A stretch of 64,000 nt of DNA. Origin: Candidatus Marinamargulisbacteria bacterium (lineage in GTDB: Bacteria > Margulisbacteria > Marinamargulisbacteria > UBA817). The notes under the pieces were generated by a model. That model did not search any database. It saw nothing but the letters and a program-made list of their open reading frames with translations, and had not been told where the DNA came from. A program made the translations under genes and the position numbers. The DNA lies in NCBI GenBank assembly GCA_049889215.1, contig JBMHDV010000027.1, positions 29,594 through 93,593 of the forward strand, written 5' to 3'. This document shows, in pieces, positions 11,261 through 61,300 of the stretch (positions within the stretch are counted from its first letter, which is position 1; every line of letters starts with the position of its first letter).

Positions 11261-11548
11261 TTGCTTAAGTTAATATTTATTTTTTTTATGTCCGTATCCT
11301 TCTACGTGTTTTACCAACGCAAATTATCACGCGTCTTGAAGCCGGGGTTTGTAACACCCATATCAGCAATTCTAACTCTAGTTTCATTAGCACCAATGGG
11401 ATTTATAGTTGGATTAATTAGCGTATACGCCATACCAAAACTATTAACAAAACAATCCAGTATGCATTCAATGATTTGCGCTAAATGTGGTACCCTATCC
11501 AAAAAGGGGGAATCCATATGCAGAAAGTGCAAAAACATGCTGTCCTAA
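11261..11548 (+). CDS. Small membrane protein with C-terminal zinc-ribbon (CxxC...CxxC)
   Basis: Two hydrophobic helices then CAKCG...CRKCKN; TTG start at 11261 or ATG ~11288; overlaps start of next gene by ~30 nt. Confidence 0.35.
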   Translation: MLKLIFIFFMSVSFYVFYQRKLSRVLKPGFVTPISAILTLVSLAPMGFIVGLISVYAIPKLLTKQSSMHSMICAKCGTLSKKGESICRKCKNMLS

Positions 11549-38717: not shown

Positions 38718-40238
38718 AATTTAGATGCTCCTTTACATAAGGGATTATCGATCAAGGCGAAGCAAACCTTTAAAATTGACAAAGCAACACAAAAGTGTAC
38801 AATAAATGAACATATGGATCATGATAATCAACTGGTTGATATCAACCAACTGTTTAATCATTGGATGACACAAATTGAAACCAATGAGCATTACAAAGAA
38901 CTCAGTCACGATGAACTCAGTCGAATTCAACAAAATTCGAAAGACTTTTTATCAAGGTGCATGACGTCCACACCTGAATTAAAAAACATTGATCCAAATG
39001 CGGTAAAACCGTTATTAGAATTCCTTCGTAACATACGAAAGGTTCATGAACAGCAAGGCCTATCCATTCGAGATACCACCCTGCTGACGTTGTCTTTAAA
39101 ATCCAGCCTTACTGAATATTTAAAAACGTTGGATAAAAGCACGCCAATATTTGATGAGCTTAATCACCTACTGGATATGTTTAGCATTTTATCATTTGAA
39201 CTTTATTCCCATGAACAAGAGTCCCTAATTGGTCAGCAAGCCGAACAAATTAAATACCTACAAACCACCGAGGGACAAGCGTTTGGTACTTTGATCGGAC
39301 AATCTCATGCAATGAAAATTGTCTACCAAGCCATTGGCCTAATTTTAGAAAACGATGTCAGTGTATTACTGCAAGGTGAAAGTGGCACAGGTAAAGACGT
39401 CATAGCCAATGTTATCCATCAACACTCCAACAGAAAGCACCATCCTTTTATTGCGATCAATTGCGGTGCCATACCAGATAACTTGATCGAATCCGAACTT
39501 TTTGGTCATGAACAAGGGGCCTTTACGGGTGCTGATAAAGAACGTATCGGAAAATTTGAACTCGCAAATGACGGCACCATCTTCCTTGATGAAATTAGTG
39601 AATTAAGCTTGGATCAACAAACAAAACTTTTACGTGTCATTCAAAACCAGGAAGTTGAACGAATTGGAGGAAGCAAAAAAATCCCAATTAATGTTCGAAT
39701 TATTGCCGCATCCAATCAACCACTAGAAACATTGGTCGACGAAAAAAAGTTTCGAATGGACTTATTTTATAGAATCAACGTGTTCCCAATACATTTGCCA
39801 AAATTAATTGACCGCGAAAACGATGTTTTACTCCTTGCCAACCATTTTATTGAAAAATATAGCCAAAAAATGAAAATCCCCATCGCAAACTTAACTCAAT
39901 CGGGTGCAAACCACTTAATAAACCAACGCTGGCCAGGGAATATTCGAGAACTTGAGAATACCATTCAACGCGCCATTATTATTGCCAATGGAAAAGACAT
40001 TACTGATCGCATCCTTAGTTACACACCAGGACAAACATCCATAATCCCACAATTACCCACACCCACACCTAAGATACCCCCCCCTTTTGAAGTGCAATCG
40101 CTCGAAGAAAATGAAGCCAAATTTATTCAGCAAACACTACAACACTTTAAAGGGAACATTAAAAAAACAGCAGAAACGCTAAAGGTATCTCGAACGACGC
40201 TTTACAACAAATGCAAAAAGTATAAAATTGAAATTTAA
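38685..40238 (+). CDS. Sigma-54-dependent transcriptional activator (AAA+ with GAFTGA, C-terminal Fis-type HTH), non-receiver N-terminal domain
   Basis: Walker A GESGTGKD, GAFTGA, Walker B IFLDEISEL, arginine finger region, C-terminal TAETLKVSRTTLYNKCKK; true start may be ATG 38814. Confidence 0.85.
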   Translation: MMRIRPYKHAHNLDAPLHKGLSIKAKQTFKIDKATQKCTINEHMDHDNQLVDINQLFNHWMTQIETNEHYKELSHDELSRIQQNSKDFLSRCMTSTPELKNIDPNAVKPLLEFLRNIRKVHEQQGLSIRDTTLLTLSLKSSLTEYLKTLDKSTPIFDELNHLLDMFSILSFELYSHEQESLIGQQAEQIKYLQTTEGQAFGTLIGQSHAMKIVYQAIGLILENDVSVLLQGESGTGKDVIANVIHQHSNRKHHPFIAINCGAIPDNLIESELFGHEQGAFTGADKERIGKFELANDGTIFLDEISELSLDQQTKLLRVIQNQEVERIGGSKKIPINVRIIAASNQPLETLVDEKKFRMDLFYRINVFPIHLPKLIDRENDVLLLANHFIEKYSQKMKIPIANLTQSGANHLINQRWPGNIRELENTIQRAIIIANGKDITDRILSYTPGQTSIIPQLPTPTPKIPPPFEVQSLEENEAKFIQQTLQHFKGNIKKTAETLKVSRTTLYNKCKKYKIEI

Positions 40239-42209: not shown

Positions 42210-42470
42210 ATGTCAGACATTGGCCCTATCTCTGCCGATCTCCCATCTCTTGCAGAAGAGGTAATAAATTCACCTGACACAATTTCGACAACTTGTCGCG
42301 CATGTGTTGAGTCATCATCATCGGTTGATGAACTTAGCGATAAACTAAAGATACTTGAAGAAAGCATAGGAAACAGCTCGCCAGCAACAATTCAAATGAT
42401 CAATGAAATCAAAACAATGATTGAATCAGATACGAGTTTATCAGAAATCCAATCCAAACTGTCCAGTTAA
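42210..42470 (+). CDS. Small Ser-rich hypothetical protein
   Basis: 86-aa ORF immediately following previous ORF. Confidence 0.3.
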   Translation: MSDIGPISADLPSLAEEVINSPDTISTTCRACVESSSSVDELSDKLKILEESIGNSSPATIQMINEIKTMIESDTSLSEIQSKLSS

Positions 42471-44122
42471 AATGTTTGAGACACATTGAAGTGAACCATA
42501 AGCTCATCATTTCCAAAACCAAAATCCAATCGTAAAGGTATCACAGACTCTAACAATCGAACACCAAATCCGTACCCTCGATACAATTGATCAAACAATT
42601 GATTGAATTCATCATTTATAAATCCACCATCTAAAAATAAAACTCCAGCAATATTTTGTGATAATCGTTGCCTTAATTCAAAATTAAAAGATAAACGATA
42701 GTTTCCAAGAAAAGAAAACTCATTGTATCCTCTCAGTGAATTTGCGCCACCTAACGAAAACCGCTCAGTTTCAAATGTTGATTCTTGGCCTAATTTTTTA
42801 TATCTACCCCCAAAAAGTTGAACTGCAAATGTCGATTGATTAAGCGTATAAAAGTAAGCATTTGTTAGACGAAACCGATGAAATGAAATCCCACCTAAAT
42901 CAATAAGTCCCAAGTTGCCTCCAATATCATAATTCAATGCAATTCGATGCCCAAATGTGGGATATTGAAAATGATCAACTTTGTTTTGATCCAATAAAAA
43001 AGAGATGGATCGTGTGGTATAGCCAGAAAAGTCACCGTCATCTTGCGGAACTACAGTCTCATTGCGTAAGGTGGTGGCAATTGCCAAATATTGACGCTTA
43101 ATTTGATGCATGAACGACACTGCACCACCTGAACGAATAGTTTTATAAATAGTTAAATCCTCTTGATAAACTTCAGAAAGAAATCTTTTGTAAAAACTAA
43201 TGTCAAATGAAACTGGAAAAGAATTAAATAACCAAGGTTGATTATATCGAAATTTATACGCTCGAGTCTCTACATTGTTTAAATAACCCAACTGGAATTG
43301 CAACTCTATAAAATCTGTGTAAATAAACCGGTTGTACCACTTAAGCTTAGAAAATAGAGCCACACCTTTATCATCTTCCAATTCCTCTAAACCAATATCC
43401 AACATATTTTGCTTTCGCTCCCTTATCTGATACGCTAATCGAACATTATCCGATGAAACCATCTCAATGGTTGGTCCGTTGACACTACTAAAGTTTGACA
43501 ATTGCGATAATGATTCAAGATCAATATCTAAAATTCGCCGATTGAGCTGATCACCGTTTGATAACAAAAGTTCACGATAAATAACCCAAGACGGGGTTGT
43601 ATCCAATCCCATAACGACAATCTCACTGATTGTAGGTGACTCAATCATAATCGTCATTGTTCCAGCATCAGAAACCGAAATTGATTTAACGGATGCGGTA
43701 ATATATCCCCAATCAACCAATTGTTTATTAATTGCAGCAACATCATCTTTTAAATATTTAAAGTTTAAATAGTCACCAGATGTATGAGCCATCACCATCG
43801 TCAGTTGACGCATTGGAATTGGAGAACCAACAACATGAATTTTTGTTATCACCGGGTTATACTGAATATTAACAACTAACCGACTACCTCGCTTCTTCTT
43901 ATCAAATTGAAATGTTATGGATTGATATACACCATTCTGTCGAATTTGATTTAAAAAAGCTTCAACTTGCTGCTCAGATGAAATCACCCCATTAAACCGA
44001 GAATTTATCTTTGAAATCAAAAACTGATCATCTGTCCCAGTCACAGCAACCGACTGAATAAAGGCCGAATGAGCAGCAGTAGAAAAATAAATAAATAAAA
44101 AGATATTAAAAAGAATACGCAT
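42467..44122 (-). CDS. Omp85-family outer membrane protein (BamA/TamA-like)
   Basis: Signal peptide, POTRA-like N-terminal region, C-terminal beta-barrel ending in aromatic residue (NVSQTF). Confidence 0.75.
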   Translation of the reverse strand: MRILFNIFLFIYFSTAAHSAFIQSVAVTGTDDQFLISKINSRFNGVISSEQQVEAFLNQIRQNGVYQSITFQFDKKKRGSRLVVNIQYNPVITKIHVVGSPIPMRQLTMVMAHTSGDYLNFKYLKDDVAAINKQLVDWGYITASVKSISVSDAGTMTIMIESPTISEIVVMGLDTTPSWVIYRELLLSNGDQLNRRILDIDLESLSQLSNFSSVNGPTIEMVSSDNVRLAYQIRERKQNMLDIGLEELEDDKGVALFSKLKWYNRFIYTDFIELQFQLGYLNNVETRAYKFRYNQPWLFNSFPVSFDISFYKRFLSEVYQEDLTIYKTIRSGGAVSFMHQIKRQYLAIATTLRNETVVPQDDGDFSGYTTRSISFLLDQNKVDHFQYPTFGHRIALNYDIGGNLGLIDLGGISFHRFRLTNAYFYTLNQSTFAVQLFGGRYKKLGQESTFETERFSLGGANSLRGYNEFSFLGNYRLSFNFELRQRLSQNIAGVLFLDGGFINDEFNQLFDQLYRGYGFGVRLLESVIPLRLDFGFGNDELMVHFNVSQTF

Positions 44123-47100
44123 AACTTAACGACCACCTCGGATCAAACACCGTTACCTCTGAATACTCATTTGCATTCTTCAAACTCACTGAAAAATTGG
44201 GTTGAAAATAATACGTAACATCAACTCGAGTCAACTTTACACCTCTAGCATTTTCATTAACATAGTCTGTTGATAAATTTAGATCCGAGCGTAATGTTAA
44301 AAACAATTTCTCTTTATATAGATTTGATACAGTTTGAATACCAAATAAATCCTCATTAATTTTGCTATCTGAATCTGAACTAAGAATTGTTCGGCCAAAG
44401 TCATAATTTAACCTTAAATCATAAAGACCAACCCGCTTTGCAAAACGCCGCTCATACGGTCGTAATGAACTTCGGATAAATGTATTAATACGATCTCGTC
44501 CATAATTAGTGAAATCCGTCTCCTCTGAATTAGAAATAATTTTGGGTAGTAATAGATTAAGGCCGTAATAGCTAGCTTGCGAACCACTAACATCTGTTTG
44601 CATTAAATCAACATCATACGTCCCATAAAGCTCATATTCTGGAAACGTCAAAAAAGCATTATTTAACCCAAAATCAAAAACAGTCACCTTAGCCGCTGTA
44701 CCCGACAAATCTCCATTAATCGATAACCCAATGGCATCATAAGGCAACGTATCATTTCGAACATTTTTTGAAGACACTTGAGTATCTATTTTTCGTAGCG
44801 CCCTTAAATTCAACGCCACCATCATTTGCTGAAAACCGTCATCTTGAATCGGAGATAGATCCACACGCTGATCTGTGACATACTCCGGGACATCTTTAAA
44901 AAAATGGTTTTGTTGTGACTTTGGCATTAACTCATAAACACCATCAAAAATAGAAATAGATCCATCATAAAAATATAAACTTGTCGTAAATTGAGGGGAA
45001 TTAATTGAACCGGATATTTGAAAGGGGGCTGAGCGATTCTTTTCATCCAATTCCAGAAAAATGTTATTAGCAAATCTAAAAATGCCATCACCTACCAAAC
45101 TTCCTTGTATATAGTTCCCAGAACCAAGTGTTGTTGTTAAATCCAATAAAATTCTAGGCTTTGTTTTATTTTTAGTACGCTTTGGCAAATTAAAAATACC
45201 GTCTCGAAAAATAAGGCTTCCAGACAATTGAGGTCCGGATTCATTGGCCTTACCAAGGCTATACTTAATGTTTTCCAAAGCGTTTTTTTCCCAATAAAGC
45301 GTCTGGTCCCCCTGAAATTTGATTTGGTTTGCAAGAACGTCACCAGAAAAAAAGACAGGAAAGTTCATCGAAAAAAATGTGTCTTTCATTGTTAGGTTAT
45401 AGGCAACTTTGGCTTTCTTTTTCATTAAATCGATAGGACCTAAGTCAATATCTCCAGAAATATTAAACTCATTTTTCTTGTTTTCCCGAGTGACTCGTCT
45501 AAAGGTATGGTCTCCTTGCCATATAACATTTAATACATCCAGACTTAGCACAGATGAATCAACACGATAACGATATCTTGGAACTTGAATGACAGATGAT
45601 TGCCCATCATTAGAGGACACTACCCTTAATTCAAAATCATTAAAATCAACATCCAATGAACGAACGGACAAATTATGAATTGGACCAACAAATTTCCACT
45701 TCACATACCCAGTATTATAAAGACTTTCAATATATGCTGAGGCACCTGAAAAAATATTTAATGACGCATCAGAAAATTCAAATCCCATATCCAACCATTT
45801 ATCTTTATAGTTATATTCACCAAGAAGAAAACCGTTATAGTTTTTACCCAAATATTGCATTAACGAATTCGTAATCTCATGAGTGTTTTTCTCCTTATTA
45901 TACGACAAATCTATTGCAAGAGATTCAACTTCGACCTTATTGAACACCAACTGATCAACATAAAAGTTATAATTTTCAATAGAGTCAGTTATATCTTTTG
46001 ACTTTAATTGCATCAAATCGGCCTGGACCATTTGCATGTAATCAAAATCCGTTAAAATAATATCAATTTTGTTTTTGCCTAAATCACGATTATTAATCGA
46101 TAAATACCCACTAAGTAATCCTTTAATTTTATTGTCAGCCAATGCTTTTTTCTGATATTGAGAGTAAAATTGCATAAAGCTTTGAAGGTTATCATGCTGA
46201 TATTTGTGATAATCAAATGCTTCATTGAAAAAAAACTCATTTTCTTGTGATTGCATTGTAAAATCATCAAGTTTTTTAATTATTGTGTAATAAATATCAG
46301 ACACAGTATTTAAATTTAGATTGGCTGCCTTCATGTTCAAATCATAAAATGAATAAAATGTATCAGAAGATGCGGTTTTAGAGAAATCTATAGAGCCATT
46401 TGCCAAAAATCGTCCTCGATTTAATTGAACTTGAAACTGATCAAAAGTTAGCGTATCGCCCAATTTTTTACCATCAAATAAAAGATACTGGATTGGAATG
46501 CCATCCAATTCCAAATCCATGGACTCTACTAAACCATCAAAATTTAAATCTGATAGATCCCCAAAAAAACGCCCCTTTACACTAACATCACCCAATAATT
46601 TCTGACGCGAAAAAAAGTCCAAAGCATCCAATCTAAAAAAACCTTTCTTCTTTTGCGTAACATCGAATGCCCCTTTTGAGCTTAATGAACCAGCTAAATC
46701 TAACTCATGAAGCCCACTAAGACGACATTGATTAATGGTAATTTCCCCGCCATTCGTCTCAACTTCTAAAAATACATCACCAAGTTGACCATATTGTAGC
46801 TTAAACCCCTGAATATTTAATTTTGATTTAAAGTTTAGCTCTGATGCGTGATCATACAATAAATAACCAGTAGCAACACCGCCAAAGGATCCAAATAACT
46901 GAGAATTAGTAAGTTTCGGCAATAACATTAAGTCAAACTGATCAAAATTTAAATCCAAAAGAATCGGTTTTTTCTGGTATAACTTAACCTCACCACTTAA
47001 CTTAGTTGTCCCATACACTAAATCATTAATTTTAAATTTATGGCGCTGATTATCAAATTGATAACCTAAATCGAAAGCGTCAAATCGTTGATTATTGTAG

Positions 47101-48809
47101 GCAATGCCACGCCCTTTTAGCTGACTTTCAAACACCCCATTAAAGCCCTGCTCTGACCAAGAAACCTCACCTTTAGATTCCATTTCTTCCAAATAATACG
47201 CCTGCTGATCTGGCTGAGCTAGTTGCCCAAGGCCTGACTGATTAAACGATAAACCAGCTGAACTTAACTTTCCCGAAAACTCAAGGGCTTGGCCATTCGA
47301 CAAATAAACACTAAAAACAGGCAATTTCAACACTTGTTTTTCCTGCCTCAAAATAGCTTTTATTTTTTTTATTGTAATTCCATAAAAAGTTAAATTTAAT
47401 TGATCAAGATTAAATTCGGTTTGATTGTTTTTAGAGTCTGAGGCAAGATAAATATTTGCTGTCACTTCTGAATTAAGTACAGGAACAAAAAGAGGTAATC
47501 CTGCCAATTCAATATGATAATCATTCTTATAAATATTACCCGATACCTCATAAGATGATGATGACAAAGAGGTGAGATACCCTGGTTGACCGTCTTTTGC
47601 CACCAACTTTAAATTTACCGGATCGATATTAATCAGCTTGGATTTAATTTCACTTGTTTTAAGATAAGTGGTAAAAGTTGGGCGTTGAAACAAACCCGTC
47701 AATTTAACCATAACTGATGCATCAAAATCTAAATCAGTTGGTGGCGCTAACTTTAAATATGAAAACACATCTTCTGGTTGAATGACACCGTCAGATGCCA
47801 TCGATAAATTAAACCGTCGGTTATAAAAAGAAATGTCCCCAGAAACATTAAACGGAACATCATGAATCATTGCCCGAATGTTTTTTAATATTAAGGAAGC
47901 TTCATTATGATTTGAAAAAACAACCTGACCAGATACATTTTTCAAAGGCACCTTAAATCGAGCTGGATTAATGGATAAATAATCAAAATTAATAGCAATA
48001 TTATAGAAAAACCTCTTTTTAATTGCTTTATTTGAATTGCTCTTTATTTGACCTGAAATCTGTAAAAAGTCATCAGAAATATTAACTTTTGAAAATGGGA
48101 CTAAATATGATGCCCAGTCATCCGTCACTAATGAAACAGCTTTAAAATCATACAAGTATTCAGTCCCCTGAATTTCACCCTGAATTGAACTTCGATCAGC
48201 AGATCCAGCAATAGAAAAATCAAAATCTAGCTTCACCTTTCTTGATGAATCAAATGCAATTGTCCCTTGCCCACTTGAAAAGGAAGACGAAAACTCCTGG
48301 GCGACTTTTCCCCAACCTCTAACATCCGTATACGTACCAGATATGTCGTTAAATTGAATTGTTAATCGTGATGGAGATGCCCCGCTCTCACCACTTTTCG
48401 AAGATAATGCTTTAACAAACTCAATGATATTAACTTTTTTTGATTCTAAGCGATTAACATTTAACAGAACCCCGTTAACATTTACTTTACCAATAATATC
48501 CGACAGACCATTGGTGATGAACCGCAATGACGGATAAATCGTAACTAAATCAGCTTTAATAAAATACGTTTGGTTCTTTACAGGTGCTTGACTGTAAATC
48601 ACTACATCTTTTAAAACAATTCCAGAAAACAAGTTTCCCGATAATTGTCTAAAATCGATAGGCCTAGCCAAAGCACGCTCAATACTTTTTTCTAAATTAT
48701 CTTTCGCTATTTTATTAATAAAAGGAACTTTTAACGCGTATCCTGATACCAAAGAAAAAACTAAAAATACAAAAGCAAAAAAAGTAGTCAGCCGAAACAA
48801 TCGTTTCAT
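44106..48809 (-). CDS. TamB/AsmA-like giant translocation-and-assembly protein
   Basis: 1567 aa, N-terminal signal-anchor, beta-rich repetitive body, C-terminal DUF490-like segment; directly upstream of Omp85 gene with 17-nt overlap. Confidence 0.7.
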   Translation of the reverse strand: MKRLFRLTTFFAFVFLVFSLVSGYALKVPFINKIAKDNLEKSIERALARPIDFRQLSGNLFSGIVLKDVVIYSQAPVKNQTYFIKADLVTIYPSLRFITNGLSDIIGKVNVNGVLLNVNRLESKKVNIIEFVKALSSKSGESGASPSRLTIQFNDISGTYTDVRGWGKVAQEFSSSFSSGQGTIAFDSSRKVKLDFDFSIAGSADRSSIQGEIQGTEYLYDFKAVSLVTDDWASYLVPFSKVNISDDFLQISGQIKSNSNKAIKKRFFYNIAINFDYLSINPARFKVPLKNVSGQVVFSNHNEASLILKNIRAMIHDVPFNVSGDISFYNRRFNLSMASDGVIQPEDVFSYLKLAPPTDLDFDASVMVKLTGLFQRPTFTTYLKTSEIKSKLINIDPVNLKLVAKDGQPGYLTSLSSSSYEVSGNIYKNDYHIELAGLPLFVPVLNSEVTANIYLASDSKNNQTEFNLDQLNLTFYGITIKKIKAILRQEKQVLKLPVFSVYLSNGQALEFSGKLSSAGLSFNQSGLGQLAQPDQQAYYLEEMESKGEVSWSEQGFNGVFESQLKGRGIAYNNQRFDAFDLGYQFDNQRHKFKINDLVYGTTKLSGEVKLYQKKPILLDLNFDQFDLMLLPKLTNSQLFGSFGGVATGYLLYDHASELNFKSKLNIQGFKLQYGQLGDVFLEVETNGGEITINQCRLSGLHELDLAGSLSSKGAFDVTQKKKGFFRLDALDFFSRQKLLGDVSVKGRFFGDLSDLNFDGLVESMDLELDGIPIQYLLFDGKKLGDTLTFDQFQVQLNRGRFLANGSIDFSKTASSDTFYSFYDLNMKAANLNLNTVSDIYYTIIKKLDDFTMQSQENEFFFNEAFDYHKYQHDNLQSFMQFYSQYQKKALADNKIKGLLSGYLSINNRDLGKNKIDIILTDFDYMQMVQADLMQLKSKDITDSIENYNFYVDQLVFNKVEVESLAIDLSYNKEKNTHEITNSLMQYLGKNYNGFLLGEYNYKDKWLDMGFEFSDASLNIFSGASAYIESLYNTGYVKWKFVGPIHNLSVRSLDVDFNDFELRVVSSNDGQSSVIQVPRYRYRVDSSVLSLDVLNVIWQGDHTFRRVTRENKKNEFNISGDIDLGPIDLMKKKAKVAYNLTMKDTFFSMNFPVFFSGDVLANQIKFQGDQTLYWEKNALENIKYSLGKANESGPQLSGSLIFRDGIFNLPKRTKNKTKPRILLDLTTTLGSGNYIQGSLVGDGIFRFANNIFLELDEKNRSAPFQISGSINSPQFTTSLYFYDGSISIFDGVYELMPKSQQNHFFKDVPEYVTDQRVDLSPIQDDGFQQMMVALNLRALRKIDTQVSSKNVRNDTLPYDAIGLSINGDLSGTAAKVTVFDFGLNNAFLTFPEYELYGTYDVDLMQTDVSGSQASYYGLNLLLPKIISNSEETDFTNYGRDRINTFIRSSLRPYERRFAKRVGLYDLRLNYDFGRTILSSDSDSKINEDLFGIQTVSNLYKEKLFLTLRSDLNLSTDYVNENARGVKLTRVDVTYYFQPNFSVSLKNANEYSEVTVFDPRWSLSYAYSF

Positions 48810-50466: not shown

Positions 50467-51595
50467 AACCTCGGATATTATTTACGGCTGTTTTAAGCAA
50501 ATCAAAATCGGTCGCGATGCATGATCTTATGTAGCCCTCGCCACAATCCCCAAATACACTACCTGGAACAACAGCCACATTAGCCGCTTCCAATAATTTT
50601 TGAGCAAATGATAGTGATGTCATTCCCATTGATTGAATAGAAGAAAAACAATATAAGCCACCTGCTGGCATTATGGTTTTTAATCCCATTTGATTCATGT
50701 GATCAGTAAAATATCTCGCACGTGTCATATATGAGTTTTTCATAGCATTTACTTCATCAAATGAGTTTTTACATGCCTCTACAGCGGCAAATTGAGATAA
50801 AGTAGGCGCACACAATGCAGAATATTGATGAATTTTATTTATCATTTCAATAACATATTCCGGAGCTGCAACATAACCAATGCGCCAGCCAGTCATAGAG
50901 TGGGCCTTTGAAAAACCGTTGAGATAAATTAAATTATCTCGACATTTTTTTATTCGAGCAATTGAAAAAAATGGGTCAAAACTTAAATCTGCATAAATTT
51001 CATCAGTAATAATTAAAAGATTATTATCTAATGCAAAATCAGCGATCTCTTCTAATGTTGACTGAGGTATTGATTGCCCTGTTGGATTATTGGGGTATGA
51101 CAATACGATGGCTTTAGTTTTAGGTGTTAATGCTGCCTTCATATCAGCAATTAGCGGTATAAAGTCTGATTTTGATGTGTCAATAGAAACAACCTTGCCC
51201 CCACATAATTCAATTAATGGTCGGTAACAAACATACGATGGCTCCGGTAATAAAATTTCATCTCCAGGGTTTATCACTGACCGAAATACAATATCTACAC
51301 CCTCAGATACACCATTGGTTATTAACAGCTCATCTGAAGAATAAACAATGTTAAATTGATGATATAAATATTGACTTATCGCCTCCCTCAAGGCAAGTAA
51401 ACCTCGGTTTGAAGTATAGGTTGTTGATCCACTTTCAATACGATAAATAGCCTCATCGCGAATATTCCAAGGCGTTGAAAAATCAGGCTCTCCAACACCA
51501 AGAGAAATTACATCTTTAGAATTCATTACCAAATCAAAAAAGACACGAATCCCAGACGGAGGTATCTGCTTAACTCGTTCTGAAAAAAATGTCAT
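50447..51595 (-). CDS. PLP-dependent class I aminotransferase (AlaT/AspB-like)
   Basis: PLP-lysine motif NGFSKAHSMTGWRIGY, SYPNNPTG; 4-nt overlap with upstream Lrp gene, resembling AlaR-AlaT pairs. Confidence 0.85.
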   Translation of the reverse strand: MTFFSERVKQIPPSGIRVFFDLVMNSKDVISLGVGEPDFSTPWNIRDEAIYRIESGSTTYTSNRGLLALREAISQYLYHQFNIVYSSDELLITNGVSEGVDIVFRSVINPGDEILLPEPSYVCYRPLIELCGGKVVSIDTSKSDFIPLIADMKAALTPKTKAIVLSYPNNPTGQSIPQSTLEEIADFALDNNLLIITDEIYADLSFDPFFSIARIKKCRDNLIYLNGFSKAHSMTGWRIGYVAAPEYVIEMINKIHQYSALCAPTLSQFAAVEACKNSFDEVNAMKNSYMTRARYFTDHMNQMGLKTIMPAGGLYCFSSIQSMGMTSLSFAQKLLEAANVAVVPGSVFGDCGEGYIRSCIATDFDLLKTAVNNIRGFVSGHD

Positions 51596-52083
51596 GGCAA
51601 AATTGGCAGTCGATTAACGGAGTTTTCAGCTTCCATTAAAACACCATTTTCTTTATAAGATTTGAAAATAAAATGGGTGGTGGTTGATTTAACATTTTCT
51701 ATTGTTGCTAACTTATCAAAAACAAAATGTGCGATATCTTTATGGTCTTTACCTTCAACAACAACCAAGAAATCATATTTACCTGAAACAAGAAAATGTG
51801 ATTTCACATTTGGAAAACAATAAACCTTTTTAGCAATTGAGTCATATCCAGTATCTTTTTCTGGCCGGATACTTAATTCAACCAATGCCTTAATTGAAGA
51901 TGTTTGAATTAAATTTTCGTTAATGACAGTTGTAAACTGACAAATAATTCCAGCAGACTTCATCTCATCAATATGCTTAATCACATCATCAACATTTAAA
52001 TTAACCATACTGGCTAATTCGTCATTTGTATATCGAGAGTTTTGCAATAATAGATCCAAAATCATTCTTTTATTTTTATCCAT
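51592..52083 (-). CDS. Lrp/AsnC-family transcriptional regulator
   Basis: N-terminal HTH (LDLLLQNSRYTNDELASMVNLNVDDV) and C-terminal RAM domain. Confidence 0.85.
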   Translation of the reverse strand: MDKNKRMILDLLLQNSRYTNDELASMVNLNVDDVIKHIDEMKSAGIICQFTTVINENLIQTSSIKALVELSIRPEKDTGYDSIAKKVYCFPNVKSHFLVSGKYDFLVVVEGKDHKDIAHFVFDKLATIENVKSTTTHFIFKSYKENGVLMEAENSVNRLPILP

Positions 52084-52163: not shown

Positions 52164-52514
52164 TTAAATCACCGTAGCAAGAATTTCTTTGTTAGAAACC
52201 GTTTGCTTATTAAACACATGATCAATATCATAGGCGTCCATTTCTTTTAAGGATAACTCAATCGACTGAGAGCTTAGAAAATTAACTCTAGACAAACAAG
52301 GCTTTGTTTTAATTTGCCGCACAAACTCTAAACCATTCATATTTGGCAACATTAATTCAGTAAAAATAACATCAACACTAGTTCGAGCTAAAAAAAGCAT
52401 TGCGTCTTTGGGGCAAAATAGCGAATATACCTCAACTGGATATTTCGCTAATAATTCAATAAAGCGACAGTGAACACTTACATCAACATCAATAATTAAA
52501 ATTCGTTGATTCAA
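52164..52514 (-). CDS. Orphan receiver (REC) domain protein with Glu in place of the phospho-acceptor Asp
   Basis: ILIIDVDV acidic pocket, DVIFTELMLPNMNGLEF aligning to CheY ISDWNMPNMDGLEL with D57 replaced by E; TTG start. Confidence 0.6.
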   Translation of the reverse strand: MNQRILIIDVDVSVHCRFIELLAKYPVEVYSLFCPKDAMLFLARTSVDVIFTELMLPNMNGLEFVRQIKTKPCLSRVNFLSSQSIELSLKEMDAYDIDHVFNKQTVSNKEILATVI

Positions 52515-52537
52515 ACTAATCCTTTTAGAAGAGGTTT

Positions 52538-52565
52538 AGTTCTAGTATAACAAAGAATTAGAACT
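52538..52565. promoter_or_regulatory. Inverted repeat in divergent promoter region between REC and XRE genes (candidate operator)
   Basis: agttcta ... tagaact, 7-bp arms with 14-bp spacer. Confidence 0.25.
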
Positions 52566-52616
52566 CATTCAATTCTACTTATTTACAATCACGATAATTT
52601 TTTTTATAATTTTAAT

Positions 52617-53267
52617 ATGGGAAGATTTGGATCAACACTTAAGCGACTTCGTGAAAATAGAAGCATATCAAAAGTTAAACTTGCTAAATGCATTGGCACT
52701 TCCGACGCATACATTCGCCAAGTTGAAAACCAAGGCTACAAACCACCAACATTTGATCTTTGTGAGAAGATATCTTCAGAACTATCATTAACTAATAACG
52801 AGAAACTTGAACTTTATGAAGCTGCTTTTATGGAAAGAATCGAATCTGAAAAAGAATTTTATAGCTTATTAAAAAATTCTATTTTTTCAAGCAGAAACCT
52901 TCCATCTACAGCATCAACAAATGTGATTACCGCAAGGTTAAAACTGCGCCAAACAGTTAAAGAAGATTTATCTTCTATTTCTTATGATGTAGAGCGTATA
53001 TTTTTTGATTATTTCCAAAAAAGCAACATTTCTATCGATAACATTGTAATTAATCAATCAAGCGTTACTTTAAATATAATGGATCAAGAAGCAACAACAG
53101 TTGAAGCAAATTTACCGAATATAATGAAACTGATTTCAAGCAAAATTAAAAGTGATTTTCCAAATTTTGCTGTCGCACCTTCGATTTGGGACAGTAATTT
53201 CGAAGTCATAAAAATATCAGAAACAGCCCAAGCCCGAACTGATAATCATGAATTATCTCGTGTTTAA
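52617..53267 (+). CDS. XRE-family HTH protein with uncharacterised C-terminal domain
   Basis: N-terminal LKRLRENRSISKVKLAKCIGTSDAYIRQVENQ HTH_XRE pattern; stop 9 nt before STAND gene. Confidence 0.7.
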   Translation: MGRFGSTLKRLRENRSISKVKLAKCIGTSDAYIRQVENQGYKPPTFDLCEKISSELSLTNNEKLELYEAAFMERIESEKEFYSLLKNSIFSSRNLPSTASTNVITARLKLRQTVKEDLSSISYDVERIFFDYFQKSNISIDNIVINQSSVTLNIMDQEATTVEANLPNIMKLISSKIKSDFPNFAVAPSIWDSNFEVIKISETAQARTDNHELSRV

Positions 53268-53276
53268 CCACGTTAA

Positions 53277-56200
53277 ATGAGTCCAACAAAATCAAATATT
53301 TTACAACTAACAAATATTTTAAATTCAAACCTAAATGAATTTTTAATTGTATCAATACAATTAATTCAAAAACTAAAACAAAGCAGCACATCGCCAAGTT
53401 TCATCACACCAGAGCAAATTATTTTAGAGAAAAGTAATAACAAGTATTCAATTGAAATAAATGACAATAAGGACAGTGACCCATTTGCAATAGACATCTA
53501 TAAATCACCTGAACAAAAAGAAAAAATTGATCGAGCCGTTGATCATCGATCCACATTTTACTCACTTGGTGTTATTTTTCACTTGATTTTAACTAAAGAA
53601 TATCCATTAAGCTTAGGAAACATTATTAGCATTAACTTTCCTTCAAACTCAACAGCGCCTCAATCTGTTCAACTCATTATTGAAAAATTATTGTGCCGGT
53701 ATCCCGAAGACCGCTACCAATCTTATGAAGGGCTTATATTAGATTTAGAAAAATGCTTAAATGCATTTGAAAAAACAGGTAATATCCCCCTATTCTTACC
53801 CGGAATAGATGACAAACCCATTGATCTAAAATTCGAACATTATTTATACGGCCGAGCAGTTGAAGTTGACTATATACAGAAATCAATTGAATCAATAAAA
53901 AAACAGAACAGTGCAGGACTTTTAATCATTCATGGTCCCTCGGGAATTGGTAAAACCCTACTTGCAAAGCATGTCATTAATAAGATAAATGTTGAAAACA
54001 AACTAGTCATTAAAACAAAACTAAATGCAACAAATGAATCGTCAATCGATTGTATTACAGATATTGTTTCAGCCATGGTAAATATTTCAAAAGAACACGC
54101 CTCTGATCGTAAACTGACAGAAAAACTAAAAAAAATAACCATAAAACATAACCGGTTATTGGAAACATTATTATCCAAAACAGAACTTGAATCACAAATT
54201 TCAAGAGAAACCATGCAATCAAAAACATTGAACTTAACTAATTTGCTTATCGACTTTTTCCAAATCATAACAGAAAAAAATACACTAATAATACAAATTG
54301 ATGACATTCAATGGTTAAATTCAGCCTCAAAAACCTCCTTAATGATGGCAACTTCCTATATTTCAAAAAATTTAATTACCATTGCTACATCCAGAAAAGA
54401 ATTTAAACCAAAAGCATCACTATTAAATCAACTATTTCCCAACGAAAAAATATCGGAAAACTTAATTGCTTCATTCAATAATTTAATTACATTTTTAGTG
54501 CCAGTGGCAGGATTAGGTATTCAAGAAATAACAGAACAAGTTCAAGATCTTTTACTGTGTAAAAAAGAAGAAGCCAATCGATTAGCAATTATTCTTCACA
54601 ACAAAACAGGTGGAAACCCTTTGTATATTCAAGAACTTTTAATTTCATTTAAAGAAAAAAATCTGCTTTGGCATGACAATAAATCAAAAGAGTGGACTTG
54701 GAAAATGTCAGAATTAGAAAAAGAAAAGGTAACAGAGAATGTTGCTGATCTTTTAATCAATAAAATTAAAACATTACCAATGACTACTCAAAAGATTTTG
54801 CATTATGCAAGTTTAATTGGAAATAAGTTTAATACATCAATAATTGCAAGCGCCCTTAAAGAAGATATGATTGCAATAGATCTAGCCCTATGGCATGCTT
54901 CAGCAAAAAAATTAATCGTATCAACCAATGAGCAACTAAAAGACCAAGAATATACGTTTTTACATGATAAAATTCAATCTGCCTGCCTTAATGATCAATT
55001 ATTTAATATCCTAGAATCCCATAAAATTATCGGAAAATCTTTATTGAAAAAATATGGGAAAGAAACATCAACAAACCATTTAACTAAAATTACATATCAC
55101 CTAAACCAAAGCGTTGGTCAATTGGATAATAATGAAATAAACGAACTCATTTATTTAAACCAAATCTGTGGTAATCAATTGTTAAAAAACTTGGTTGATC
55201 CGGACGCAGAAAAATACTTTTCAACAGCTATTAATCTCTACCATTCTTACTCAGTAAATAATACTTCTTTGCTAGAAAAGTTATATTTTTCAAATATAAC
55301 AGCTCATCAATTAAATGGTAGTACAACAAAAGCTCTAGAAATTATTAAAAAGATAAATAAAGAAATACCAAGTACAGAAAATTATCAAAAAACTCTGTTA
55401 ATACGGCTGATGATTATAACAAGTGAAACAAATTACAAAGACGCATTAACGCTTGGAATTTCGACACTGCGCTCATCAAGTCCAAATTTAAAACTTATCC
55501 CATCAACGCTTAGCATCGCTACTCAACTTATATCAACTACAATAAAGACATTTTTTAACATAAACCGACTAAAAGATCTGCCTCGAAAAAAATCGGAAAA
55601 AGCTATTTTTGAATCACAAATTCATTGTGAGTTAACTGACAGCGCATATTTTTTCAACAAAAAAACATATGTTCAATTAATTTGTAATAATATAAACCTT
55701 GTTTTTAAAAAGGGAATCTCAAAAGATACTCCTTTCATGCTGCTACAGTTCGCTAATTTACTTGTAATAAAGTTTAAACTATTTAATCTATCAAAAAAGA
55801 TATGCCAAATTGCACTAATCATTATTGAGGAATTTAAACACTCAAAATATACATTTCAAACTAGGTTTATATACTCAACTTTTATTTGCCGTTGGTTTGA
55901 AGATGAAGAAAACGTAATTAACGAACTTAATAAAAGTATAAAAAACTGCAAAGACAATAACCTTCTTTCATTTGCAATTTATTCAATTTTTCAAAATGTA
56001 CTGGTGATGCTAGGTGCAGGTAAGCCATTAGAAAATATCGAGAAATTTATTTTTAAACACAACCCATTTGTTTATTCTGTCGACTTTTTAGATACAATCC
56101 TTGCTCTAGAAATCTCAAAATGCTACATACAATCTCTTAAAAGTGGTCAAAAAAACTATCAATCATCCATATTTAATGAAAACATTGCCGTGAAAAAAAT

Positions 56201-56765
56201 GAAGGAAAATGGTTTAACTGTTTCATATGGCTGGTATATGAGCTCCAAATTAAAAACAAACTATTTTCTTGAAGATTTTGAAAATGCAAAAGCATTTGGA
56301 AATCAAACAGAAGAGTGTCTAGACTATTTATTGGGCCTAAACGAAGTGGAAGAGTTTCATTTATATCGATCACTTTCAATTTTGAATGATGCAACTAAAA
56401 GAAATCTTAAACTAACTAAAAGACAAAAAAAGCAAATTAAATCATCTATAAAATATTTTAAGCAATGGTCAAAACAAAATGCACAGAATTATGAACATAA
56501 ATACCAATTATTAACAGGGGCCCAACTTGAATATCAAAAAAAGTACAAAAAGGCTGAGTTATCATTCAAAAGAAGCCTAGAAATGGCCCATTTTAAAAAT
56601 CAAATTACGATAAAGGCACTAGCGTTGGAACACCTTGGAAAAATGAAAAAAAGACAGTGTGATCCAAACGCAAAATACATACTTCAAGATGCCATAAAAA
56701 GTTATTCAAAATGGGGAGCAAAAGAAAAAGAAAAACAACTTTCAAAAATACTTGAACAAATTTAA
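53277..56765 (+). CDS. STAND/AAA_16-type NTPase with N-terminal pseudokinase remnant and C-terminal helical repeats (PknK/MalT-like architecture without DNA-binding domain)
   Basis: Kinase C-lobe-like YKSPEQ...HRSTFYSLGVIFHLILT...YPEDRYQSYEGLILDL with HRD and DFG replaced; Walker A IHGPSGIGKTLL; Walker B LIIQIDDIQW; long helical C-terminus. Confidence 0.75.
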   Translation: MSPTKSNILQLTNILNSNLNEFLIVSIQLIQKLKQSSTSPSFITPEQIILEKSNNKYSIEINDNKDSDPFAIDIYKSPEQKEKIDRAVDHRSTFYSLGVIFHLILTKEYPLSLGNIISINFPSNSTAPQSVQLIIEKLLCRYPEDRYQSYEGLILDLEKCLNAFEKTGNIPLFLPGIDDKPIDLKFEHYLYGRAVEVDYIQKSIESIKKQNSAGLLIIHGPSGIGKTLLAKHVINKINVENKLVIKTKLNATNESSIDCITDIVSAMVNISKEHASDRKLTEKLKKITIKHNRLLETLLSKTELESQISRETMQSKTLNLTNLLIDFFQIITEKNTLIIQIDDIQWLNSASKTSLMMATSYISKNLITIATSRKEFKPKASLLNQLFPNEKISENLIASFNNLITFLVPVAGLGIQEITEQVQDLLLCKKEEANRLAIILHNKTGGNPLYIQELLISFKEKNLLWHDNKSKEWTWKMSELEKEKVTENVADLLINKIKTLPMTTQKILHYASLIGNKFNTSIIASALKEDMIAIDLALWHASAKKLIVSTNEQLKDQEYTFLHDKIQSACLNDQLFNILESHKIIGKSLLKKYGKETSTNHLTKITYHLNQSVGQLDNNEINELIYLNQICGNQLLKNLVDPDAEKYFSTAINLYHSYSVNNTSLLEKLYFSNITAHQLNGSTTKALEIIKKINKEIPSTENYQKTLLIRLMIITSETNYKDALTLGISTLRSSSPNLKLIPSTLSIATQLISTTIKTFFNINRLKDLPRKKSEKAIFESQIHCELTDSAYFFNKKTYVQLICNNINLVFKKGISKDTPFMLLQFANLLVIKFKLFNLSKKICQIALIIIEEFKHSKYTFQTRFIYSTFICRWFEDEENVINELNKSIKNCKDNNLLSFAIYSIFQNVLVMLGAGKPLENIEKFIFKHNPFVYSVDFLDTILALEISKCYIQSLKSGQKNYQSSIFNENIAVKKMKENGLTVSYGWYMSSKLKTNYFLEDFENAKAFGNQTEECLDYLLGLNEVEEFHLYRSLSILNDATKRNLKLTKRQKKQIKSSIKYFKQWSKQNAQNYEHKYQLLTGAQLEYQKKYKKAELSFKRSLEMAHFKNQITIKALALEHLGKMKKRQCDPNAKYILQDAIKSYSKWGAKEKEKQLSKILEQI

Positions 56766-56810: not shown

Positions 56811-57329
56811 ATGCTTATTGACTTATTTGATGAAGAAAAAGAAAACCCAGATGATTATATATCATTTTTAGTATTTGAGCCTGCCTCACTAAGAATTCCT
56901 GATAATGACTTATTATTAATTGGTGACCCAGTCACAGACTTATTTAAAAAAGTAAATTTATCAGATAGTTTTAATTCATCCCTTCCAGATCAAATTTTAA
57001 AAAACCGCTTACAGAGAATAGAAATGATGATCGATTTACTCAAAAATAACGATGGTCTTATCATGACCAAATTTTTAAACAAAATTTGGAGAAGATATAG
57101 CTTTTTTAGTAACTTAGGTGAGCTATTTGTTACTCAAGGTGAACTTAAAAGATTAGTTCCGGATTACTCATTTAACGAAAACCCAATTTTAGAACGTTTC
57201 ATTTTAGAAGAGATCGACGAATCCGAAGATAATAATGAGGATGAAAACGACGATGAAAAGGAAAGTGAAACAACTGAAAATTCAGACTCTAAATCATCTT
57301 CAAAAAAAAGTGAAGTTGAAAGTAAGTAA
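56811..57329 (+). CDS. Hypothetical protein with strongly acidic C-terminal tail
   Basis: 172-aa ORF ending EEIDESEDNNEDENDDEKESETTENSD. Confidence 0.4.
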   Translation: MLIDLFDEEKENPDDYISFLVFEPASLRIPDNDLLLIGDPVTDLFKKVNLSDSFNSSLPDQILKNRLQRIEMMIDLLKNNDGLIMTKFLNKIWRRYSFFSNLGELFVTQGELKRLVPDYSFNENPILERFILEEIDESEDNNEDENDDEKESETTENSDSKSSSKKSEVESK

Positions 57330-57340
57330 GATTAAGTCTT

Positions 57341-58366
57341 TTGTCTTTTTCCTTATCTGATTTTGATTATTATCTACCAGATGCTCAAATCGCTCATACA
57401 CCCACTGAAAGAAGAGATAAATCTAAATTATTAAAATACAACAAATTAACAAAAGAAGTATCAGATCATACATTTGATGAATTTAGTGATTTAATCCCAA
57501 ACAATAGTGTTATCGTCTTTAATAATACAAAAGTACTGAAAGCTAGAGTAATATGCTACCGTGAGTCAGGTGCAAAAATAGAGTGTTTTTTTTTAAAAAA
57601 AATATCTGAAAAGAGATGGGAAGTTATAATAAAAAACAGTCGTCGAATTTCGAATAATGAAACACTAATCATCGATAAAAAAAACAGCATAAAAGTAATC
57701 GAAAAAAAAGACAAATGCGCCATTGTTTGCATAAAAAGTAACATGGAAGATTTTGAGTTTCTTGAAAATTTTGGAAAAACACCGCTTCCTCCATATATTA
57801 AAACCAAAGATCCAGATAAATTCCATGAACGATACCAAAGCATTTTTGCATCAAACCCCGGTGCTGTTGCCGCACCAACAGCAAGCTTACATTTTACAGA
57901 TAAAATATTTTCTCAACTTAAGTCAAAAAATATCGAAATATTATATGTTACCCTACATATTGGCTTAGGAACGTTTAATCCAATAACAAAAGAAAATATA
58001 ATTGATCATAAAATGCATAAAGAAAACTATTCCATAACTAAATCTACAGCAGCGAAATTAAACCAGGCAAAAAAAGAAAAAAAACCAATTTTTGCCGTGG
58101 GTACAACCGTTGCACGTTGCTTGGAATCAAATATCAAAGATAACCTATTTTCAGAACAAACAACAGACACAGACCTTTATATTTTTCCTGGCTATGAATA
58201 TAAAGGGATTGATGGCTTACTAACCAACTTTCACTTGCCTAAATCATCACTTTTTATTTTAGTTGCAGCCATGATTGGCCTTAAAAATATTCAAGATATT
58301 TATCAACATGCCATTGAACATGACTATCGTTTTTTTAGTTTTGGAGACGCAATGTTAATTTCATAA
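57341..58366 (+). CDS. queA: S-adenosylmethionine:tRNA ribosyltransferase-isomerase
   Basis: N-terminal FDYYLPDAQIAHTP, central TPLPPYIK, C-terminal QueA pattern. Confidence 0.9.
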   Translation: MSFSLSDFDYYLPDAQIAHTPTERRDKSKLLKYNKLTKEVSDHTFDEFSDLIPNNSVIVFNNTKVLKARVICYRESGAKIECFFLKKISEKRWEVIIKNSRRISNNETLIIDKKNSIKVIEKKDKCAIVCIKSNMEDFEFLENFGKTPLPPYIKTKDPDKFHERYQSIFASNPGAVAAPTASLHFTDKIFSQLKSKNIEILYVTLHIGLGTFNPITKENIIDHKMHKENYSITKSTAAKLNQAKKEKKPIFAVGTTVARCLESNIKDNLFSEQTTDTDLYIFPGYEYKGIDGLLTNFHLPKSSLFILVAAMIGLKNIQDIYQHAIEHDYRFFSFGDAMLIS

Positions 58367-61300
58367 TGGGATTTCGATGGCTAGCTTTAATATGTTTTCT
58401 TCATATTTCAATATGCGGCTCACAAATTTACATGCCAGGTTACCCCAAATATTCCATCATTACTTCGCATAATATAGAAGAACAGGCAACAACCAACAAT
58501 GTCTATCCAAAAGTAGATTCCTCGGGTTTTGTAGAGATGAAATTTTCTGGCCGGAATTATACGAAAGATCTAAATAAACTAGAAACAATCCGACAAGATC
58601 CATATTACAAAAAAATTCCAAATGAAGTTCAACCTGGCTCAAATAGTTTTAAAACTCGATATTTAATCGACTTAAATGGAGAACTTGATGAAAGTACATC
58701 TGTAAACGTTCATATTCAAAAGGAGCCAGAATTCCCAGGAGTTTATAACGTTAATATCAAACATAAGAAATCTGAAATTAGCTTTGGCGATTATAAAACT
58801 AACTACTCATCAGGTGAGTTTGTTAATGTGGAAAAATATCTTAATGGAGCTCAAGTTAGCTACACTGATGATCAATGGTACGGAAAAAGCAGTATTGGAT
58901 CAGAAAAGTCTGAGCCACAAAAGTTTGAAACATTTGGTAATAATTCAAAAACTTATAAAGTAGGGCGATCTTTTTTACTCGAAGGTTCAGTTATCGTTTA
59001 TGTAAATGGAGGTAATAATCCACTCACTGAAAACGTAGATTATACAGTGAATTATTATGATGGTTCTGTCACATTCAAAAAAGCAAAAACAAAGGTGGAT
59101 TTTATTCAGATTATTTATGAATTTACGAATCCAATTCAAGATTTTATACCTGCGCTTTCTCGCAAAGATTTTGTTGGATTAACATATATTTACAACCCAT
59201 CACAAAATGTTAATATCAACGAATTTATTTTGAAAAATGCCACAACAAATATACATATTTCAGATAACAAGGAAATACTTGAAAACCGCATCAAATTAAA
59301 AAAGTTACCGATAGAATTGGGCAGTGAAATAATTTACCACAACTCCAACCAATTAACGCAATCAAATGATTATCATATTGACTATAACTCTGGCATCATT
59401 CGATTTATTAAGAAGCCTTTAATAATCGATGATAGATTAAAAATTAGTTACACATATTTTGAAACAGGTAAATCTGAAGATCGATTTATTGGTAATGGTA
59501 CGCCTGGCCCCTATAAATTAAAGCATAAACATCCAATTACAGAATCATTAGAAATTCACTTGGGAGGTAAGCAGGCACGTGAATTTATTGATTATATTTA
59601 TAAAAAAGAAACAAATAGTATTCAGTTTATGTATGAAGTTTACTCTAATAAATTAATTAGAGTCACTTATAGATACAAAAAAGTTCAACAATCAAAAGTT
59701 AGCTTTAAAGATAGTCCCGTATCATACTCAGTCACATATCTTAATGAGTCAAATCGCATTAGAAAAGATGAATTGCAAAGCAAAGAAAACATAACCCCAA
59801 GCTCAATTACTGGAGTAAACAATAATATTATTGTTCTTCCAGATAACCCAATAGACTCAAATAAACCAATTCAATTAACCATTAATGGTTCAGATATTAG
59901 TGAATCAGAATATAGCGTCAATTATTACGAAGGCACAATCACCGTTTTAAATCAGTCAAATTTAACTCTTAATAATGTAAAAGTAAGCTACTCTAGTCAA
60001 AATAGTATTAATTCCGAACACTCCATTCAAGGATTAAGTATTTCTCAATACAATCAAGATCAAATCAAATTTAAGTCACTCCCAATAAAATACGATGGAA
60101 TACAAAAAATAACTCTATACTCACCTGAAGAAATGGTATTAGAAGAAGGTACAGAATACGAAATAATGTACATCAATAATGGCGAAAACTTTACCGACAT
60201 CCAAATTAAGTTCTTGCTAGGAAACTATTCTAGATTAACCAAATACCCATCAGGGTCCGATGTCATAAAATTTGATTACCTTTATACCCCATCGTCTGAT
60301 GACATACAATCAGAATCAAAACATGAAATAATTGACGTGCGATTAAAAAAGAAGATAAGGGATAACTGGAATATTTTTACTGAAATAGCAAATAGTAAAT
60401 ATAACTTTTCAAAAGCCACAGAATTTAAAAAAGAAACATTTAAAAATAACCAACCAAATAATATATATCAATTAAGTAATTCGCCCATTGAAGAAAACTC
60501 TGAGCTGGTATTTATTAATGGGTTTTCTCAATCAAAAGATAATGACTACTACATCAACTATGAACAAGGAATAATAACATTCATTAATAAAACAATCCCT
60601 GACGGTCAAACAGTTGAAATTTCATACAATTACTTCTTATCAAAAACAGCAAACATTGGGGATGCTAATGCATATTCAATTGAATCTGAATACAGCCCAA
60701 CATCATCAGTTATTATAAAAAACAAAATGAATAGTGTAGACCCAACGTTTCTGCCCATTGGTAATGCAAATATATCAAAGGGGATGTCAACTCAATCACA
60801 CGAAATAAACTGGAAATTTAACAAAAATGAATCAGCTCACTTTTTTTATAATAACGAAAAAATTAAAAATATTAACAATGAAAAGGTTTACGAAAAGAAC
60901 AGCTATATTTCAAAACTCGAACTTCAAGCGCTTGTATTTAAAACTACACATGAAATTCGATATGACGATATTGCATCAAGCGAAAATTACAAAGAAACAC
61001 CGAAAAAAATTATTGAATATAACAATGACATTATCTTAGACAACTTTAACGATCGTTGGACATTATCTAATCGAATATCTCAAAAAAATGAATCCGTGTC
61101 CTCCACAACCTCTCTTAATTCACTAATTGCATCAACAAAACTTAATTATTTAAAAACATTTGGCTATAAAAATTTGATAAAAGAAAGCACATTTAGCCCA
61201 TTTATTGGTATTGAATTAGATAAAACAAATACATCAACATTAAGCACTTACAATGAAAAAAGAATAGAAAATTTTGGATTGAATATAGATAGCACATTAA

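Follow-up and report, generated by a model that had tools for sequence, protein, structure and literature searches.

A stand-alone receiver domain with glutamate at the phospho-acceptor position in Marinamargulisbacteria, a likely functional pseudo-receiver

We describe a 116-residue protein, encoded in a 64-kb stretch of DNA (64,000 nucleotides, hereafter the window) from a Candidatus Marinamargulisbacteria bacterium, which consists of a receiver domain alone and carries Glu at the phospho-acceptor site. Comparison with its syntenic relatives suggests that it is a functional stand-alone pseudo-receiver, derived, in one Marinamargulisbacteria sub-lineage, from an orphan receiver of the canonical Asp-bearing type, a reading that we regard as likely. 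Such a protein would most likely work as a phosphorylation-independent protein-binding module. The Marinamargulisbacteria are a class within the phylum Margulisiibacteriota, and a protein identical to this receiver is present in NCBI/ENA under the name 'response regulator', from a Candidatus Marinamargulisbacteria MAG.

A single receiver domain without the acceptor aspartate

The gene (52164-52514, minus strand, stop codon included, from the ORF list) encodes a single-domain protein in which residues 5-112 match positions 1-107 of the 111 of the Pfam Response_reg model (PF00072), with 39.5 bits against a gathering cut-off of 30.2 (E 7e-10). An AF2 prediction from the receiver sequence alone was unusable (pLDDT 37), and we used instead a model built with 23 homologues (pLDDT 94.2, pTM 0.88), which has strands at residues 3-8, 27-32, 49-52, 76-81 and 97-102 with five helices between them, in (βα)5 order. 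Compared with solved structures by Foldseek, the model superimposes on the receiver of B. subtilis PhoP (1mvo) with a TM score of 0.88 and an rmsd of 1.7 Å; there are 509 PDB matches at E<=0.001, the best 50 of these 509 are all receiver domains, and CheY, CheY4 and DivK are among the structural matches. The family match above cut-off, the fold of the model and the structural comparison all bear out the receiver domain proposed in the first-pass annotation. The protein belongs to none of the named NCBIfam families of single-domain regulators, against which it scores about 20-22 bits for cut-offs of 160-180 (DVU0259/DivK, 21.8 against 160; CpdR, 20 against 180).

A phmmer comparison with solved receivers aligns DVIFTELMLPNMNG of the protein with DIILLDVMMPGMDG of PleD and DLILLDLELPMMDG of PmrA. 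Since Glu53 is aligned there with D53 of PleD and with the corresponding residue of PmrA, which we take to be the phospho-acceptor aspartates, it stands at the acceptor position. This residue (codon GAA, 52356-52358, minus strand), equivalent to Asp57 of CheY, is the first one past β3 (49-52) in the AF2 model, and its assignment to that position, already made in the first-pass annotation, is the same in the pairwise, profile and structural placements. We also sought an alternative alignment with an Asp at the acceptor position, and no Asp fits: Asp48 is at the N-terminal end of β3 in the model and Asp11 is in the β1-α1 loop, so both were rejected.

A second substitution affects the metal site. 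In the orthologue alignment Val10 (codon GTT, 52485-52487, minus strand, as are all codons given here) replaces the second metal-binding acidic residue, equivalent to Asp13 of CheY. It is flanked by Asp11 (52482-52484), in the β1-α1 loop, and by Asp9 (52488-52490), the equivalent of CheY Asp12, which follows β1 and is kept. Also kept, according to the alignment and the model, are Ser81 (52272-52274), at the end of β4 (76-81) and equivalent to CheY Thr87, and Lys103 (codon AAG, 52206-52208), which follows β5 (97-102) and is equivalent to CheY Lys109. Two of the five active-site residues are thus absent (acceptor Asp replaced by Glu53, acidic residue replaced by Val10) and three are present; among the features of a canonical phosphorylatable receiver, the protein has the Thr/Ser and the Lys and has neither the acceptor Asp nor the acidic pair after β1. 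Because the second metal-binding acidic residue is gone too, the case for a non-phosphorylatable receiver is stronger. There is, in addition, no aromatic switch residue three positions before the Lys (Val100) and no Pro following it. The protein falls under the published definitions of both an aspartate-less receiver and a pseudo-receiver (PMC4395418, PMC12632262).

Among 117 receiver homologues from loci that had been fetched for other reasons, 116 have Asp in the acceptor column and one has Glu. About 4% of receivers are without the acceptor Asp (Maule et al. 2015, PMC4395418), and in these Glu is the commonest replacement (26%; PMC4395418); Glu at this position is uncommon, yet not rare in absolute terms.

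Glu and Asp forms in orthologous loci

Close relatives of the receiver are few. Of 1.84 billion representatives searched exhaustively with phmmer, 1410 were receiver-type hits and only a handful of these were close relatives, to which a profile search added more, and a word-indexed search with the receiver protein matched only the protein itself. A scan of GTDB gave one orthologue, from UBA817 and of the Asp type, the remaining hits being generic receivers; a scan of JGI metagenomes with N-terminal patterns gave generic receivers and probable Asp-type orthologues, and no new member with Glu. After these JGI metagenome and GTDB representative searches, the known lineages with Glu are three only.

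The gene order around the receiver is common to seven loci, three from Glu-type lineages and four of the Asp type. On one strand are QueA, a protein of about 170 aa without assigned function, an AAA_16 (STAND) protein of about 1160 aa and an XRE-type HTH protein; on the opposite strand are the receiver, an Lrp/AsnC-type regulator, an aminotransferase, CvpA, threonine synthase (ThrC), a TamB-like protein and Omp85. Given this strictly conserved order, the receivers of these loci are positional orthologues. They fall into two clades. The Glu clade, made up of the window, L002 (P0002) and L003, has DVD (I-D-V-D) after β1 and T-E-L after β3 in all members; the Asp clade, made up of L004, L005, L008, UBA817 (GTDB, L012) and several short metagenome contigs, has D-D-D or D-N-D after β1 and C-D-(I/V) after β3. 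Position 81 is S, S and T across the Glu clade and T across the Asp clade, and the Lys103 column is invariant in 11 of 11 orthologues. The aromatic residue three positions before the Lys is absent in both clades, and the Pro after the Lys is absent in most members.

Conservation of the Glu is what the first-pass annotation had proposed to check in orthologues: it is invariant in the three divergent lineages, and the syntenic sister clade keeps Asp. As the syntenic Asp clade and more distant receivers carry Asp, Glu is the derived state, and it is fixed. Two lineages encode Glu53 by GAA and the third by GAG (the Asp codon in the syntenic orthologues is GAT), and synonymous differences are found on both sides of it within the Glu clade, in the Thr (ACT/ACA) and in the Leu (TTA/CTC/TTG). 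Such synonymous differences at kept residues indicate that the residues are maintained by selection and not by recent common descent of the DNA, which argues that the Glu form is under selection.

Part of the Asp clade (L004, L008 and P0157) has D-N-D, with the second metal-binding carboxylate already gone and the acceptor Asp kept. Without this carboxylate these members are also pseudo-receivers by the 2025 definition (PMC12632262), and the Asn at the second acidic position in part of the Asp clade makes the whole family somewhat non-canonical.

Two contigs, 11310 and 11311, come from two different Glu-clade genomes in a single sample (ERZ28548060). The public ENA contigs L001, L002 and L003, with names that end in _pilon, are rich in indels, and housekeeping genes are fragmented in all three; the gene splits in them are most simply frameshifting assembly errors.

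Expression signals of the receiver gene

The receiver gene starts with TTG (52512-52514, minus strand), preceded after a 5-nt spacer by a sequence that reads as a Shine-Dalgarno-like element, AAAGGA (52520-52525, minus strand). The A/G-rich sequence AAAGG(A/T) is found upstream of the TTG in L002, L003 and L004, at a spacing of 5-7 nt, and the corresponding element is GAGG in L008 and GGAGG in L012. A consensus scan identifies TTGAAT-17-TATACT, which has a TG extension (52544-52572, minus strand), as a sigma-70-like promoter of the receiver gene, and the intergenic regions of the orthologous loci have the same -35/-10 pattern in the corresponding position. An inverted repeat that overlaps the -10 of this promoter, GTTCTA-N14-TAGAAC, was dropped since L002 and L003 do not conserve it.

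Distribution of constraint and alternative explanations

The fast-evolving genes of the conserved block are those of the receiver, the XRE protein and the AAA_16 protein. The receiver gene is the fastest of all, with 35-50% identity against about 59-85% for its metabolic neighbours. Receivers of the Glu clade are 43-50% identical to one another, those of the Asp clade 57-80%, and a receiver from one clade is 30-41% identical to one from the other; for Lrp, all lineage pairs give similar values (59-76%). Inside the Glu clade the β1-α1 loop is 100% identical, the β3-α3 loop 79% and α3 67%. Identity in the Glu clade is 6% in α4, 17% in β5 and 25% in α5, against 23%, 44% and 70%, respectively, in the Asp clade. 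The Glu-clade receiver thus evolves faster, mainly in α4-β5-α5, and constraint has shifted to the active-site face (β1-α1 loop, β3-α3 loop and α3) while the α4-β5-α5 output face drifted.

Rapid change and weak conservation of the C-terminal half are also what one would see in a protein that is being lost. In that case the receiver would be a decaying relic, useless since the loss of its kinase and drifting towards a pseudogene, with Glu53 and Val10 as early damage, and its place as the fastest-evolving gene of the block, the 6-25% identity of α4-β5-α5 within the Glu clade, the lack of a kinase nearby and a frameshift in the L003 copy would all follow. We consider this unlikely. Although about half of the residues have changed, all three Glu-clade loci still have the ORF, the TTG, the promoter-like site and the A/G-rich Shine-Dalgarno-like element, and the persistence of an intact ORF in lineages with proteins that are only 43-50% identical supports a functional receiver. 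Against decay stand, too, the 38 invariant columns of the Glu clade, which include the whole TEL-LPN-NGL loop, and the synonymous differences at conserved residues. As for the frameshift, a single additional T within a run of T splits the L003 gene (the reconstructed protein has 119 aa), and this is most simply a sequencing error, since the site is a homopolymer and neighbouring housekeeping genes of the same assembly are also split.

The strong conservation of the active-site loops, the best-conserved part of the receiver, raises a different alternative, namely that the protein is still switched covalently, at Thr52 or at Glu53 itself (by methylation or as an acyl-phosphate). Eight positions are fixed differently between the two clades, and one of them is position 52, just before Glu53, where the Glu clade has an invariant Thr and the Asp clade an invariant Cys. 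A CheY D57N mutant is reportedly phosphorylated on Ser56. Modification of Glu has been raised by Maule et al. as a possibility for aspartate-less receivers, although bacterial signalling offers no known example of Glu phosphorylation (PMC4395418). The loss of the second metal-binding carboxylate at Val10 also speaks against a phosphotransfer catalysed by the receiver, and the block has no active Ser/Thr kinase, the kinase-like domain of the neighbouring STAND protein being without its N-lobe and catalytic residues. Covalent switching at another site appears improbable to us.

That Glu53 is an artefact of sequencing, assembly or misalignment and the receiver an ordinary, phosphorylatable one is hardly credible: Asp (GAT/GAC) and Glu (GAA/GAG) codons are one base apart and the related public assemblies are indel-rich, but the assembly errors seen here are indels and not substitutions (33 gap openings over 20 kb between the window and L001, a 303-kb ENA contig 98.8% identical to window positions 42163-62496), the receiver gene is the same at 351 of 351 nt in these two assemblies, Glu is shared by three divergent lineages, which encode it by two codons, and pairwise, profile and structural placements concur.

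Kinases and neighbouring genes

We scanned every ORF of at least 90 aa in the 64-kb window against Pfam, and none of them contains a HisKA kinase (HisKA plus HATPase_c); no histidine kinase was found in the orthologous receiver loci either. The earlier observation that no histidine kinase gene is nearby holds, then, across the whole window, and the receiver is an orphan response regulator both there and in the orthologous loci. The sole HATPase-type signalling protein of the window by Pfam is an RsbW/SpoIIAB-like anti-sigma kinase of 151 aa with HATPase_c_2 (10799-11254, plus strand), about 41 kb from the receiver, with the gene of a type II/IV secretion ATPase (T2SSE; 11485-12780, plus strand) just downstream. 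Pfam also identifies a sigma-54 activator (Sigma54_activat and HTH_8; 38685-40238, plus strand), in the N-terminal 200 residues of which there is no receiver domain and only a weak RsbRD_N-like match. The start of this gene overlaps a divergent 351-aa ORF without a family match.

The gene of the Lrp/AsnC-type regulator (51592-52083, minus strand; Pfam AsnC_trans_reg and HTH_24) lies 80 bp downstream of the receiver, in the same order in all orthologous loci. A sequence scan found no terminator-like site between the two genes, and they are probably co-transcribed. Divergent from the receiver, and next to it in every orthologous locus, is the gene of the XRE-type HTH protein (216 aa; 52617-53267, plus strand; Pfam HTH_3). 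A promoter scan gives for it a promoter-like site, TTTACA-17-TATAAT (52582-52610, plus strand), which matches the consensus at 11 of 12 positions and ends 7 nt before the ATG; this short distance suggests that the XRE transcript is leaderless or nearly so.

The STAND protein that follows (1162 aa; 53277-56765, plus strand; Pfam AAA_16) combines a pseudokinase C-lobe, an AAA_16 NTPase and a helical domain. Its residues 75-161 align only with residues 185-280 of PknB, beginning at the kinase APE motif, and the region of the kinase catalytic loop is degenerate in all STAND orthologues, as judged with an approximate PknB guide sequence. Homologues of this protein are of 1500-2000 aa and carry Pkinase, AAA_16, GAF and HisKA/HATPase_c (or GGDEF, cyclase or PP2C) domains. 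The protein is collinear with residues 179-1295 of one of them, the 1801-aa P0182 (E 7e-62), is without the kinase N-lobe, the catalytic loop and the tail of GAF and HisKA/HATPase_c, and ends where GAF would begin. It is thus a truncated relative of the trifunctional Ser/Thr-kinase/AAA_16/GAF/histidine-kinase sensors that are common in cyanobacteria, and the same truncated form is present in the Asp-clade L004 (P0169, 1158 aa). The XRE C-terminus and the 172-aa ORF beyond the STAND gene were considered as the missing pieces, and they have no significant similarity to them (E 0.53 and 1.4).

This 172-aa ORF (56811-57329, plus strand, from the ORF list) has an acidic, Ser-rich C-terminal tail and no Pfam or PADLOC match. 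Its first 130 or so residues are 73-83% identical across lineages, which places it among the better-conserved genes of the block, far above the receiver, XRE and STAND genes next to it. PADLOC did not assign the receiver to any defence system, and its hits for the XRE and STAND proteins are generic HTH or kinase-lobe matches. Further along the window, a 1567-aa protein (44106-48809, minus strand) has no Pfam match above threshold and its counterpart in L003 has a faint DUF748 hit; its gene is overlapped for 17 bp by that of an Omp85/POTRA protein (42467-44122, minus strand), of which it is probably the TamB-like partner. A 1550-aa protein on the other side of the receiver (58366-63018, plus strand) is also without a Pfam match above threshold, and all that it shows is a sub-threshold stretch of DUF2460.

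The receiver, the XRE protein and the pseudokinase-STAND protein could together form one conserved, non-phosphorylating signalling module, the remnant of a two-component pair, which seems to us a speculative and rather unlikely reading. A Ser/Thr-kinase/AAA/GAF/histidine-kinase sensor would first have lost both of its catalytic ends; later, the receiver of one sub-lineage would have lost the acceptor Asp and the metal ligand and kept binding through its active-site face. If so, the Asp and Glu clades would be a natural before-and-after series from a phosphorelay to a pure binding switch. A receiver stands directly beside the genes of full-length trifunctional kinases in none of five contexts (in two of the five there is one 1.6-2 kb off, behind other genes), so the idea of an ancestral cognate pair is without independent support.

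Proposed mode of action

In receiver chemistry, the acceptor Asp and the Mg2+-binding carboxylates are needed for His-to-Asp phosphotransfer. With Glu53 in place of the acceptor and Val10 in place of one of the two Mg2+-binding carboxylates, we infer from this established chemistry that the protein would not carry out normal phosphotransfer. For the functional pseudo-receiver that we favour, the Glu side chain and the three residues that are kept (Asp9, Ser81 and Lys103) would probably hold the fold in a fixed, possibly active-like state, and Glu53 may contact Ser81 and Lys103 and so stabilise one conformation. The output would be exerted by protein-protein contacts and would be set not by phosphorylation but by the amount of receiver, which has its own promoter-like site and a weak TTG start and is divergent from the XRE gene. 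Candidate partners are the products of the linked genes, probably the XRE/pseudokinase-STAND pair or the co-transcribed Lrp/AsnC regulator, although these genes may be linked because their order is conserved within a small lineage and not because they share a function.

Comparison with known systems

Receivers that lack the acceptor Asp have been defined as aspartate-less receivers (PMC4395418) and those that lack any of the five active-site residues as pseudo-receivers (PMC12632262). By its sequence, the 116-aa protein is an ordinary member of the well-known aspartate-less class. Members of this class usually keep the first acidic residue and the Lys, and only 29% have an acidic second position (PMC4395418), and the protein agrees with it in its PF00072 domain, in the Glu at the acceptor site, in the kept first acidic residue and Lys, in the lost second acidic residue and in its orphan status. 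Since the gene was already annotated as a response regulator, the finding adds one entry to a class that amounts to a few percent of receivers. The first-pass annotation had stated that Asp-to-Glu receivers cannot be phosphorylated in the usual way and often behave as constitutive or phosphorylation-independent regulators; for the class this is backed by the literature (PMC4395418, PMC12632262), and for the 116-aa protein itself phosphorylation independence is what we infer. Glu can serve as a partial phosphomimetic in some receivers and not in others (PMC4395418, PMC12632262). The Asp-to-Glu change alone often does not give constitutive activity, as in CheY, PhoB and Spo0A (cited in PMC4395418), and there are pseudo-receivers whose activity does not depend on which residue occupies the acceptor site (PMC12632262).

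In size, fold and the presence of a receiver only, the protein resembles regulators of the CheY-like, DivK and CpdR type and, like them, it presumably acts by protein binding; unlike them, it is without the phospho-acceptor, one metal ligand, the aromatic residue three positions before the Lys and the Pro after the Lys. Engineered Asp-to-Glu receivers such as NtrC D54E (PMC4395418, PMC12632262) carry this substitution at the equivalent site, where the Thr/Ser and Lys are available to contact the longer carboxylate, but they were made in the laboratory, in proteins whose metal site is intact and whose output is known. The change described here arose naturally and is accompanied by loss of the second acidic residue. 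A lineage-specific Glu for Asp is also known from fungal Rim15p, with Glu in Ascomycota and Asp in other fungi, and Glu is at the acceptor site in plant pseudo-response regulators (PMC12632262). These eukaryotic proteins are multi-domain, with a kinase or CCT domain, and share only the receiver fold with the protein described here.

Characterised atypical regulators are mostly orphans with largely unknown mechanisms, and what pseudo-receivers do after the loss of phosphorylation is called unresolved in the same 2025 J Bacteriol review (PMC12632262). The host organisms of the present receivers are uncultured. The bacterial aspartate-less receivers that have been studied (RitR, ChxR, HP1043 and FrzS) mostly carry an output domain and the 116-aa protein has none; unlike them, it has Asp-bearing positional orthologues that allow direct comparison. 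The same gene in the same neighbourhood, with Asp in one clade and with Glu and the loss of a metal ligand in the other, offers a natural pair for the study of pseudo-receiver function.
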